Virus record (IMG/VR): IMGVR_UViG_2675903289_000016
Direction: 5' to 3' (one strand)
From: a virus
Taxonomy: Duplodnaviria; Heunggongvirae; Uroviricota; Caudoviricetes
DNA: 4,481 nt
Both the position numbers and the translations under genes were made by a program. The notes under the pieces were generated by a model that was not told where the DNA came from, made no database searches, and saw only the letters and a program-made list of their open reading frames with translations. This document shows positions 566-4,481 of this stretch, piece by piece; within the stretch, counting starts at the first letter, position 1; each line of letters begins with the position of its first letter.

Positions 566-756
566 TTACGCCTNTTACGCCTCCCGGAAATACGAATGTA
601 TATACCGATGAGAAAATCCATAATAAACAGGAAGAGCGACATCCTGATAAAGAACCAAATGTCAGGCATAATGGACAGGTTTCCTGTAATCGCAAATATA
701 AAACCAGTCCCCCACACTGGAACGATAATTGCGAAAAATACAAGTCTCTTTATCAT
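562..756 (-). CDS. Small membrane protein (64 aa), two predicted transmembrane helices and a polybasic C-terminal tail
   Basis: ATG at 754-756 with a GGGAG RBS. Two hydrophobic stretches (LVFFAIIVPVWGTGFIFAI and IWFFIRMSLFLFIMDFLIGIYI) followed by GRR(K/N)RRK. The ambiguous base at 574 falls in this tail. Stop TGA at 562-564 overlaps the next ATG. Confidence 0.5.
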   Translation of the reverse strand: MIKRLVFFAIIVPVWGTGFIFAITGNLSIMPDIWFFIRMSLFLFIMDFLIGIYIRISGRRXRRK

Positions 757-1304
757 GGCGTTAACTCCCGTAATACAGCGTCCTCGGCGGTCCGTCGACG
801 GTAATAAACAGCGTGAGCAGAATGTTCAGATATGCCAAACTTTTCGCCAATTTCCCGGAATGACAGACGGCGAGGGTAATCGGAATCCCGTAGTGCACGT
901 ATAAGACGAACATCCTCATCAGATATACGTGTGCCGGGGCGTAACTCACCGCACTTTGTTAATCCGGCACCAATCATTCCTGCGCGGCACCTGACAGAGT
1001 CTTTATTACGTCCGAGATAATCCCCCATTTGCTGGCAGGTCATTGTCCGGGCATTTTTTCGGATAAATTTATCTTCATCAGGTGTAAATCGCGGTCGTTT
1101 ATATTTCAGCAACTCCGGGTATGTACTGCGCAATACGCCAGTCCGGTTATATACGGCCCAGACACTTCTTTTTATTCTGGCGGCAATATCCTTAACCGGG
1201 GTGGAGGAATAAAGCGCAATCAGCAGCGCATCTTCTTCAGGTGTCCACGGGCGGACATGAGCAGGTGCACGACCTTTTCGCCCCATGGGTTGTAATTTCA
1301 TCAT
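753..1304 (-). CDS. Putative DNA-binding regulator (183 aa) with three HTH-like repeats; C-terminal repeat resembles the Mor/C activator HTH
   Basis: Starts ATG ATG (1302-1304, 1299-1301) after GGGGGTGA. Three repeats begin WTPEEDALLIALY, FTPDEDKFIRKNA and ISDEDVRLIRALR. The last continues RRLSFREIGEKFGISEHSAHAVYYRRR, which matches the Mu Mor pattern LIRDLR…SELTTRYGVTFNTVYKAIRRMRR as I recall it. Stop TGA at 753-755 overlaps the next ATG. Confidence 0.55.
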   Translation of the reverse strand: MMKLQPMGRKGRAPAHVRPWTPEEDALLIALYSSTPVKDIAARIKRSVWAVYNRTGVLRSTYPELLKYKRPRFTPDEDKFIRKNARTMTCQQMGDYLGRNKDSVRCRAGMIGAGLTKCGELRPGTRISDEDVRLIRALRDSDYPRRLSFREIGEKFGISEHSAHAVYYRRRTAEDAVLRELTP

Positions 1305-1307
1305 GCA

Positions 1308-1823
1308 TCACCCCCTGACTCGCTTTTCAGCAGCATAAAACTCATCAGACAGAATTTCGGTCATTTTCTGTTTTGCGGGTTTTACGCCACACTCAAGGTA
1401 AATCACATCGTCAACGCAGAACCACTTCACAGGGCCAAACAGGATTGCCGAGAAATCAATGCCCAGCCAGAACAACAGGGCATCGGTCCTAGCATACGTG
1501 ACGGGCGAATATTCACGCCACAGACTGTTAAGTTCGTCAGAGGCAGCGCGCAGGGCTTTGGGAATACGAGATGTGCGCGGCGTGCAGCTCCAGCCATTCG
1601 ACGCAGTTGGTTTTCGCCATAAGTCGCGATGAAAAGGATATTTGTCATCCGTAAAACGCAGCCCCTTAAAACAAAAACCACTGATACTGAATTCAAATAC
1701 CGACCGGCACTCAACATTCAGCACGGCCTCAAGGCGTTTTGCCTCATCCTTAACTTTCTGGCAGTCCTGCTGGTATTTTTGCCACGCAGCCAGCGCGGAA
1801 GGGTTTGATGTTTTAAAGAACAT
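1308..1823 (-). CDS. Hypothetical protein (171 aa); sits where GemA lies relative to Mor in Mu, but the sequence is not recognised
   Basis: ATG at 1821-1823 with a strong GGAGGTG RBS 5 nt upstream; stop TGA at 1308-1310, 3 nt before the next start. About 55% GC. Confidence 0.6.
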   Translation of the reverse strand: MFFKTSNPSALAAWQKYQQDCQKVKDEAKRLEAVLNVECRSVFEFSISGFCFKGLRFTDDKYPFHRDLWRKPTASNGWSCTPRTSRIPKALRAASDELNSLWREYSPVTYARTDALLFWLGIDFSAILFGPVKWFCVDDVIYLECGVKPAKQKMTEILSDEFYAAEKRVRG

Positions 1824-2102
1824 TACGCCACCTCCGCAGATATCCCGGCAGGCGCTGCTGTCCGGTCAACAATCAGGTAGCGCAGAACATGTTCAGTGAT
1901 ATTCCAGCCGCTTAAACCGCAGATAATGACGCCCAGGCGTATGTCGATATACGCCATCACAAACTGGGGCACGCCTTCTTTCATGGCCTGCTCATCAACT
2001 TCAGCCACCACATAAACGGTTTCACAGGTCAGAACGCCCTGAGCAAATTCCCACGCCATCGACGGAATATCATGCCCCTCAATCCATGGCAGGGATTTTC
2101 TG
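1823..2102 (-). CDS. 3' part of a hypothetical protein whose 5' end lies inside the N gap
   Basis: The called ORF starts at the ATG at 2057-2059, but the same frame stays open upstream (…EKSLPWIEGHDIPS-MAWEF…) right up to the N boundary at 2102. Stop TAA at 1823-1825 overlaps the next gene's ATG (TAATG). Confidence 0.5.
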
Positions 2103-2594
2103 NNNNNNNNNNNNNNNNNNNNNNNNNNNNNNNNNNNNNNNNNNNNNNNNNNNNNNNNNNNNNNNNNNNNNNNNNNNNNNNNNNNNNNNNNNNNNNNNNN
2201 NNNNNNNNNNNNNNNNNNNNNNNNNNNNNNNNNNNNNNNNNNNNNNNNNNNNNNNNNNNNNNNNNNNNNNNNNNNNNNNNNNNNNNNNNNNNNNNNNNNN
2301 NNNNNNNNNNNNNNNNNNNNNNNNNNNNNNNNNNNNNNNNNNNNNNNNNNNNNNNNNNNNNNNNNNNNNNNNNNNNNNNNNNNNNNNNNNNNNNNNNNNN
2401 NNNNNNNNNNNNNNNNNNNNNNNNNNNNNNNNNNNNNNNNNNNNNNNNNNNNNNNNNNNNNNNNNNNNNNNNNNNNNNNNNNNNNNNNNNNNNNNNNNNN
2501 NNNNNNNNNNNNNNNNNNNNNNNNNNNNNNNNNNNNNNNNNNNNNNNNNNNNNNNNNNNNNNNNNNNNNNNNNNNNNNNNNNNNNNNNNNNNNN
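2103..2594. other. Run of 492 N (assembly gap or masked sequence)
   Basis: Uninterrupted n from 2103 to 2594. The length is a multiple of 3. The six-frame ORFs 2072-2671 and 2086-2643 exist only because N translates to X. Confidence 0.99.
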
Positions 2595-2600
2595 GCGGTG

Positions 2601-3131
2601 TTATTTATTCAGTCCGGCGTCCTGTTCAAAAGGCTCGACATAAAAACTTTCAGCGCCTTTATTCACCTTGATACCGGCAATGCCTTTCACAGCATCCGGC
2701 TCCGCCAGGACGGCTTCCTTGTTCACTTCCTCTTTCGTGCGGATGAAACGCTCAAGCCCCATACGGCGCAGCATTTCAATCACACCTTCCACATCACGGC
2801 TGACGCTGCATGATGGCGTTCCCAGCCGCCATGACACCGTTCCGGTGGTCAGATTGGCTGTTTTGGTTTTGCCGCCGTTCGTCAGCTCATCACGGTTGGT
2901 TTTGCACCAGTCCTGAATCCCTTTAAAAAGCACTTTGATTTGCTTTTTAAGATTTTCAATCTGCGGCGTATAACGGGCGGTGATTTCTGCCACTTCGTCA
3001 TTCATCGCCGTTTCCAGGCGCAGCGCCTCTCGCTGAATATCTCCCAGGGTGCGGATATCACGGCTGACTTCTTCCCGGGTCTGCGGTGCCGCCTCGGCTG
3101 CGGCCTTTAATTTTGTAATGCGTTTAGCCAT
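2601..3131 (-). CDS. gam: Mu-type Gam, host-nuclease inhibitor / dsDNA-end-binding protein (176 aa)
   Basis: ATG at 3129-3131 with an AAGGA RBS about 10 nt upstream; stop TAA at 2601-2603. The translation carries the motifs I recall from phage Mu Gam: N-terminal MAK, NRDELTNGGKxKTANLxTGxVSWR, RFxRTKxExNKEAxLxEP and PFEQxAG near the C-terminus, at the same length (Mu Gam is about 174 aa). Recalled, not searched. Confidence 0.85.
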   Translation of the reverse strand: MAKRITKLKAAAEAAPQTREEVSRDIRTLGDIQREALRLETAMNDEVAEITARYTPQIENLKKQIKVLFKGIQDWCKTNRDELTNGGKTKTANLTTGTVSWRLGTPSCSVSRDVEGVIEMLRRMGLERFIRTKEEVNKEAVLAEPDAVKGIAGIKVNKGAESFYVEPFEQDAGLNK

Positions 3132-3142
3132 TTTGTTTTTCC

Positions 3143-3436
3143 TTATTGCAGTGTGCCTGATGCTTTATGCACGCGGTGGCGTTTAATGATGGCATCCGCT
3201 CCAAAAGACTGTGCAGATGCCTGAAATTCCGCTGAGAGAAACTGAATAATTGCAGGACTGTGATACTGGAGAATACTTGCATAAACGTCACAGAGTGACG
3301 TCGGCCTGTTATCCGTATCACGTTCTGTTTTCACATCCACTCCAATCTTTTCATGCACTTCAACACAGTCATTGCCTGCCAACTTTTCGTCATGCGAAAC
3401 ATGATTAAATTCAAAAATAACGCGTACTTTGCTCAT
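3143..3436 (-). CDS. Small hypothetical protein (97 aa from the MSKV start), paralog B of a tandem pair
   Basis: The longest ORF reaches 3463, but the ATG at 3434-3436 has a GGGG(T) RBS, lies 4 nt after the upstream stop, and gives MSKVRVIFEF, matching paralog A. Stop TAA at 3143-3145. About 44% GC. Confidence 0.6.
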   Translation of the reverse strand: MSKVRVIFEFNHVSHDEKLAGNDCVEVHEKIGVDVKTERDTDNRPTSLCDVYASILQYHSPAIIQFLSAEFQASAQSFGADAIIKRHRVHKASGTLQ

Positions 3437-3440
3437 GGAA

Positions 3441-3713
3441 TTACCCCTGTTGATTAAATTCATTACCGTTAATAACCCCGGAAGCCATGCCTCTGTCTTT
3501 CATGAATGCACTGGCTTTCATTGCCACAAACTCTGCGAAGTTTCTGCTTTCTGCCAGCATAACCACCCCAAAAATCATGGCGGGTCCATTATCTTTCTTC
3601 TTTATTCCGGTTGAACGTATATCCAGACTTACCCCTCTGTGCGTGCTGCCATCAGAGTTTTTGCAGATAACATCTTCCTTGTATTCGAAAATAATGCGTA
3701 CGACTTTACTCAT
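3441..3713 (-). CDS. Small hypothetical protein (90 aa), paralog A of a tandem pair
   Basis: ATG at 3711-3713 preceded by GAGGA; stop TAA at 3441-3443. N-terminus MSKVVRIIFEY and C-terminal AEFVAMKASAF segment match the downstream gene. About 43% GC. Confidence 0.6.
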   Translation of the reverse strand: MSKVVRIIFEYKEDVICKNSDGSTHRGVSLDIRSTGIKKKDNGPAMIFGVVMLAESRNFAEFVAMKASAFMKDRGMASGVINGNEFNQQG

Positions 3714-4259: not shown

Positions 4260-4481
4260 TTAGCTGACTTGTTTCGCACCAACAGAACGGCATATTCCGC
4301 TGTAAACTTCTGTCGCACCTTCGCGATCAAGTCCGGCAGATATCACCATTCGTGTGCGGTCATTAAATTCAAAAAGTAAATCGCCACATTCTTTATTTTC
4401 GGCCAGTGAAATCACCTTCACGTTATCGAAATTAACCAGGTAAAAGCGTCCGTAAATATCAGGAATATTAAATACCGCCAT
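4260..4481 (-). CDS. Hypothetical small protein (73 aa as drawn); ATG lies exactly at the window edge so the true start may be further upstream
   Basis: Minus-strand ORF from ATG at 4479-4481 to TAA at 4260-4262. AT-rich (about 42% GC by hand count) compared with its downstream neighbour. Contains the exact 14-mer attaaattcaaaaa (4362-4375), also present at 3404-3417, encoding FEFN in both genes. Confidence 0.5.
   Translation of the reverse strand: MAVFNIPDIYGRFYLVNFDNVKVISLAENKECGDLLFEFNDRTRMVISAGLDREGATEVYSGICRSVGAKQVS

Follow-up and report, generated by a model that had tools for sequence, protein, structure and literature searches.

We have traced the run of 492 N that interrupts a Mu-like early region, at positions 2103-2594 of the 4,481-nt stretch of DNA analysed here (the window), to an over-long scaffolding gap in a fragmented draft assembly carrying a Mu-like prophage. 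The real sequence is most likely 393 nt long, as in all contigs with identical flanks, and would comprise 139 of the 145 nt of the spacer between gam and gene 11 followed by the first 85 codons of a 177-aa orthologue of Mu gp11. We give this reading, whose content is deduced from relatives with identical flanks, a probability of about 0.9. The 78-aa open reading frame at 1823-2059 would accordingly represent the tail of gp11 read from an incidental internal methionine, and the hidden gene is an ordinary member of the already known Mu gp11 family behind an assembly artefact.

All convincing genes of the window lie on the minus strand and belong to the early semi-essential region of a Mu-like prophage (Table 1). 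The order gam, gp11, gp12 is that of phages Mu and D108, which share the one-base overlap of gp11 and gp12; relative to Mu, the record lacks 255 nt at the 5´ end of gp11 through the assembly gap. For gp12, the family PF26885 (Phage_Mu_Gp12) is listed in a precomputed table and was missed by our Pfam scan, and its identity was therefore shown by BLASTP against Mu gp12. Just upstream of gam, two small minus-strand genes (3441-3713, 90 aa, and 3143-3436, 97 aa) both start with MSKV-R-IFE and share a weak similarity (22% identity, E 6e-4); judged from sequence, they are probably tandem paralogues. Positions 1-3 of the window are the stop codon of a minus-strand ORF (1-198) and positions 4479-4481 the start codon of another (4260-4481), and the window was thus cut at gene boundaries.

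Table 1. Features of the window and of the loci compared with it (window positions unless a locus is named)
Feature	Position	Strand	Details
Second scaffolder join	566..582	.	single n (574) between two ttacgcct copies; one copy in L001 and L003
SANT/Myb-like protein	753-1304	-	profile matches
gp12 homologue, 171 aa	1308..1823	-	55% identity to Mu gp12, E 7e-69 (BLASTP); phrog_2314
gp11 homologue, visible 3´ part	1823..2102	-	last base of codon 85, codons 86-177, stop TAA 1823-1825
Internal ATG	2057..2059	-	residue Met100 of 177; Gp11_C profile position 11
Scaffolding gap	2103..2594	.	492 N; expected content 393 nt (139 nt of spacer and 254 nt coding gp11 residues 1-85)
gam-gp11 spacer start	2595..2600	-	first 6 nt, CACCGC; remaining 139 nt expected inside the gap; alignment with L001, L002, Mu and D108
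gam (host-nuclease inhibitor), 176 aa	2601..3131	-	PF07352 Phage_Mu_Gam, E 5e-42, 143.8 bits; identical protein in L001 and L003
Conserved element/spacer	L001 5348-5492; L002 5894-5990; L024 (Mu) 2327-2424; window ~2357-2600		hidden in the window
14-codon ORF MKYVYIVINNVVGK	L001 5351-5395	-	position and ATG context of the cargo gene
180-aa phrog_2260 cargo gene	L002 5351-5893	-	also in Sakai prophage Sp18; distant DUF5420 relative; 891-nt form
192-aa DUF5420 cargo gene	L038 2038-2616	-	extra gene in the gam-gp11 slot

N runs of the draft contig

In reverse complement, the window occurs letter for letter in a 15,395-bp draft contig, CXCF01000088.1 (GCA_001251775.1; L032), which contains seven N runs within 9.7 kb (288, 917, 492, 1, 421, 1032 and 131 nt). 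This locus emerged from a look-up of the exact 78-aa product and has the unusual gene pattern of the window, the 64-aa neighbour included. The non-N segments of this contig are all 100% identical to two other assemblies, E. coli DLI.5a (NZ_CP103972; L001) and GCA_023527005.1 (L003), and the true gap lengths were read from the latter. When the 288 N, the following 7 bases and the 917 N are counted together as 1212, this interval corresponds to 1023 nt, and the runs of 492, 421, 1032 and 131 correspond to 393, 390, 855 and 114 nt, respectively. The five multi-base gap intervals (six N runs) are all 8-25% longer than the true length, and the single N stands for a length of -8, that is, an 8-bp overlap of contig ends. 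The Ns are thus the scaffolder's size estimates rather than 1:1 masking. Deliberate 1:1 masking was also considered and rejected, as the copy in the public record has the same N runs and their lengths differ from those in identical relatives everywhere. The initial annotation had assumed 492 nt to be 164 codons, which is at odds with the 393 nt found where the flanks are 100% identical.

The lone n at position 574 is the same kind of assembly artefact as the gap and holds no biology. The duplication of ttacgcct around it arises because, in L003, the two joined contig ends share 8 nt; the join adds 9 nt and turns ORF 562-756 into a 64-aa product with an X, as compared with 61 aa in identical relatives. 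A pattern scan of viral contigs for this n-containing duplicated join gave 0 matches. Two plus-strand "ORFs" (2072-2671, 199 aa, and 2086-2643, 185 aa) are likewise artefacts that are open only by running through Ns. Further along the draft contig, in the lysis region, the last non-N segment (L032 9575-9745) maps to L003 in two parts, 10105-10188 and 10397-10483, skipping 208 nt, which is either a deletion or a misjoin of the draft assembly.

The assembly broke at the gap for some reason, and local heterogeneity is possible, for example from a second related prophage in the genome. Elsewhere, independent draft contigs (L034-L037) begin exactly at the internal ATG of gp11, and in several other draft assemblies (L028-L031) the gene is divided into products of 108 and 78 aa. 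These cases suggest that assemblies repeatedly break about midway through gp11, perhaps owing to co-resident Mu-like prophages that have the 3´ half of the gene in common.

The gam-gp11 junction among relatives

In both relatives, L001 (5094-5486) and L003, the equivalent of the gap is made up of 139 nt of the 145-nt spacer and 254 nt encoding residues 1-85 of gp11. The same arrangement of gam, 145-nt spacer, 177-aa Gp11_C protein and gp12 was read in 24 of 24 contigs with an identical Gam and in 24 of 24 contigs with an identical Gp12. Among 17 loci and 60 complete E. coli genomes, the latter sampled evenly from 233 with a match, the stretch occurs only in forms of 393, 891 and 914/915 nt, and a scan of viral contigs with the right gap edge retrieved 18 loci with the 393- and 891-nt forms only. 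Scanned against the genome contigs, this edge gave 0 matches, so the source does not belong to the species-representative genomes.

The longer forms reflect an extra gene between the gam spacer and gp11, which is found in 57 of the 60 sampled genomes. Two versions were compared, of 180 and 192 aa, which are distantly homologous and collinear (23% identity, E 1e-8) and have the C-terminus IKHSEY/F-A-TEE in common, and a gene of this size requires a gap stretch of 891-915 nt. Prophage Sp18 of E. coli O157:H7 Sakai and its relatives have the early-region gene order of the window and flanks that are 94-98% identical, but carry the extra 180-aa gene that the window's lineage lacks; in Mu and D108 the slot holds nothing. 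The spacer after gam measures 98 nt in these two phages and 145 nt in the window's lineage, where it includes a 14-codon ORF, MKYVYIVINNVVGK, that looks like a deletion scar of the cargo gene.

As a first alternative, the gap could hide an 891-915-nt form, with the gp11 N-terminus preceded by a complete DUF5420-like gene of 180-192 aa, given that this is the commonest form in the sampled complete E. coli genomes, that the extra gene occupies exactly this slot, and that scaffold-gap sizes are estimates only. We consider this very unlikely. The flanks of the window, the gp11 residues WIEGHD among them, match the 393-nt form with 100% identity, as against only 95.9-97.8% for L002, the nearest locus of the 891-nt form, and lower values for the others; all 48 contig reads with an identical Gam or Gp12 show the 393-nt form and lack a DUF5420-like gene; and whereas the other N runs all overestimate, 891 nt would require an underestimate of 45%. 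The suggestion of the initial annotation that a small gene might share the gap with the gp11 N-terminus thus describes a real arrangement of a sister E. coli Mu-like lineage, but one that is absent from the contigs with identical proteins.

Marginally less probable again is a third form of 492 nt that escaped sampling, in which masking would be 1:1 and the spacer would have 99 additional nt, e.g. what is left of a cargo gene after partial deletion, or a short ORF of some 47 codons. In favour of it, the excess of 99 nt is a whole number of codons (33), and the 14-codon ORF at the cargo position suggests that deletion scars of various sizes could exist; such a form is, however, absent from the 17 loci, the 60 sampled genomes and the 48 contig reads, and the other N runs of the contig are demonstrably not 1:1.

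gp11 and its internal methionine

On the minus strand, the frame of ORF 1823-2059 continues upstream of its Met and stays open from 2060 to the gap edge at 2102, as the initial annotation had stated; translation gives RKSLPWIEGHDIPS, with R (codon AGA at the gap edge) as the first visible residue instead of the E then reported (EKSLPW...). By themselves, 14 open codons are not informative, the chance of such a stretch being about 0.5 when estimated as (61/64)^14. Beyond the gap, and provided that its length is divisible by three, the same frame meets a TGA at 2609-2611, and ATG, GTG and TTG are absent from 2595-2608. This observation had been made on the assumption of 164 masked codons, and the argument from it is still valid since 393 is also divisible by three.

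The visible 92-aa fragment matches the whole 78-position profile of the Pfam family PF25754 (Gp11_C) with 141.5 bits (E 1e-41; cut-off 27), placing the window's own sequence well above the gathering threshold, and its alignment with Mu gp11 (64% identity, E 2e-43) spans residues 86-176 of the latter. The true start accordingly lies within the N run, as had been proposed. The gene also has the expected synteny, being directly downstream of gam with its stop overlapping the gp12 start. In L001, the full-length 177-aa ORF (4814-5347) begins MIDAKVLEGVKNWL, matches phrog_1949 end to end and is 67.8% identical over 177 aa to Mu gp11 (Mup11, NP_050615; also D108 gp11), which has 176 aa. At least 120 homologues were found, of 145-183 aa and nearly all of 174-183 aa; PF25754 is present in all those listed, and where a source is named, it is E. 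coli, Salmonella or another member of the Enterobacterales. An N-terminal domain of the pattern MIDAKxLxGV...YFLRDAVDAGxLTECNGFYD is present in all identical-flank relatives, each with 177 aa, and in 37 aligned homologues. The protein of up to about 257 aa that was first envisaged is not borne out by these lengths.

Sequence comparison shows the ATG at 2057-2059 to be internal and not a start codon, because the Gp11_C match already begins at profile position 1, ten residues before this Met, because the alignment with Mu gp11 extends across it, and because the residue is Leu in 35 of 37 aligned homologues. Translated from the Met, the 78-aa ORF covers only profile positions 11-78 (117.6 bits). 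The sole purine-rich run in the vicinity, GAGGGG, ends 15 nt upstream of the ATG, too far for a Shine-Dalgarno sequence. A genuine stand-alone Gp11_C-only gene starting at this ATG might be argued from phrog_24761, whose 81-aa proteins match residues 100-177, and from the exact 78-aa product being recorded in 88 blocks of a public collection, but its likelihood is negligible: it would sacrifice ten residues of the Pfam domain, begin at a position that is almost always Leu and have no Shine-Dalgarno sequence at a usable distance, and the longest contig is below 5 kb in 79 of the 88 blocks, while the ten places shown comprise four in which gp11 is cut by the contig end, four longer contigs in which it is split, broken or uncalled upstream (some with other broken genes), one rearranged short contig and the N-gapped source contig. 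Nothing in these 78-aa records points to a short form of gp11 that occurs naturally.

The initial annotation had proposed that the completed protein be searched against Pfam and defence models. The former gave the Gp11_C match described above; in PADLOC-DB, neither the gp11 homologue nor the 180-aa cargo protein or gp12 had a match at E <= 0.01. Sequence searches of NCBIfam, PADLOC and the PDB likewise returned no matches for gp11, the cargo protein and gp12.

Early expression and predicted role of gp11

The stop codon TAA of gp11 overlaps the ATG of gp12 as TAATG at 1823, as it does in Mu. gp11 would be expressed from the early transcript in translational coupling with gp12. The proposal that all of the masked sequence belongs to one coupled operon holds as regards the early transcription unit of gam and the coupling to gp12; it does not extend to gam and gp11, which are not translationally coupled, since 145 nt of non-coding spacer separate them.

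Immediately after the gam stop, the spacer contains a conserved element of about 75 nt, TTTTAATTATGGCGC..GTCAGGGGAYTGC..GCGCCTGAAA, that is present in Mu, D108 and all E. coli prophage forms. It is hairpin-like and has no T-run; an invariant GGCGC/GCGCC stem encloses an inner one. In the consensus fold the stems are invariant and covariation is absent, so that an RNA structure is neither supported nor contradicted. Rfam gave no match at the gathering threshold for the window and L001, and a scan for promoters and terminators around the spacer yielded counts at or below shuffled expectation.

The structure of gp11 was considered on the AlphaFold model of a homologue with 76% identity (P0002), which is of moderate quality (mean pLDDT 64.7, pTM 0.48). 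The model has an N-terminal domain of three helices (residues 4-17, 22-28 and 33-45; pLDDT 66-85), a disordered linker of variable sequence (residues 51-89), and a C-terminal alpha/beta domain that corresponds to Gp11_C (pLDDT 75-89). In the model, the three-helix bundle together with a beta wing superposes on solved winged-helix domains, and we lean towards a winged helix as the fold of the N-terminal domain. Among PDB structures, Foldseek gave nothing at E <= 0.001; as regards the Lrp/AsnC family, with its C-terminal RAM (alpha/beta sandwich) effector domain, the full-length matches were not significant (E 0.026-0.1, TM 0.26-0.34). Among curated helix-turn-helix families, the best score for the N-terminal 85 aa was HTH_10 with E 0.059 and 13.6 bits, below the cut-off of 23.1. 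The likeness to Lrp/AsnC-type and MarR/ArsR-type winged-helix regulators is without sequence-level membership, and gp11 differs from them in that its linker is long and disordered and its DNA binding predicted only.

From this domain layout, gp11 would be a small two-domain early protein consisting of a winged helix hidden by the gap, a variable linker and the visible Gp11_C domain, and the masked part would thus encode a predicted nucleic-acid-binding domain and the linker. On the strength of the model, gp11 would most likely act as an accessory factor of the semi-essential early region of Mu that binds nucleic acid, either DNA or RNA. An experimental function of Mu gp11 was not found in the literature searched, which also held nothing relevant on DUF5420. 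One speculative and rather doubtful idea is that the gam-gp11 junction serves as a cargo slot of enterobacterial Mu-like prophages, in which DUF5420-like genes with roles in host interaction (e.g. anti-defence or superinfection exclusion) would be expressed early beside Gam, and that the hairpin element upstream might control their expression.

In conclusion, the main value of the finding is one of quality control. Reading the length of an N run as real sequence length is misleading, and scaffolding of a draft assembly produced both artefacts, the 78-aa "gene" and its apparent lack of a start. The biological point is a modest one, namely that related prophages differ at the gam-gp11 junction and that a winged helix is predicted at the N-terminus of gp11.
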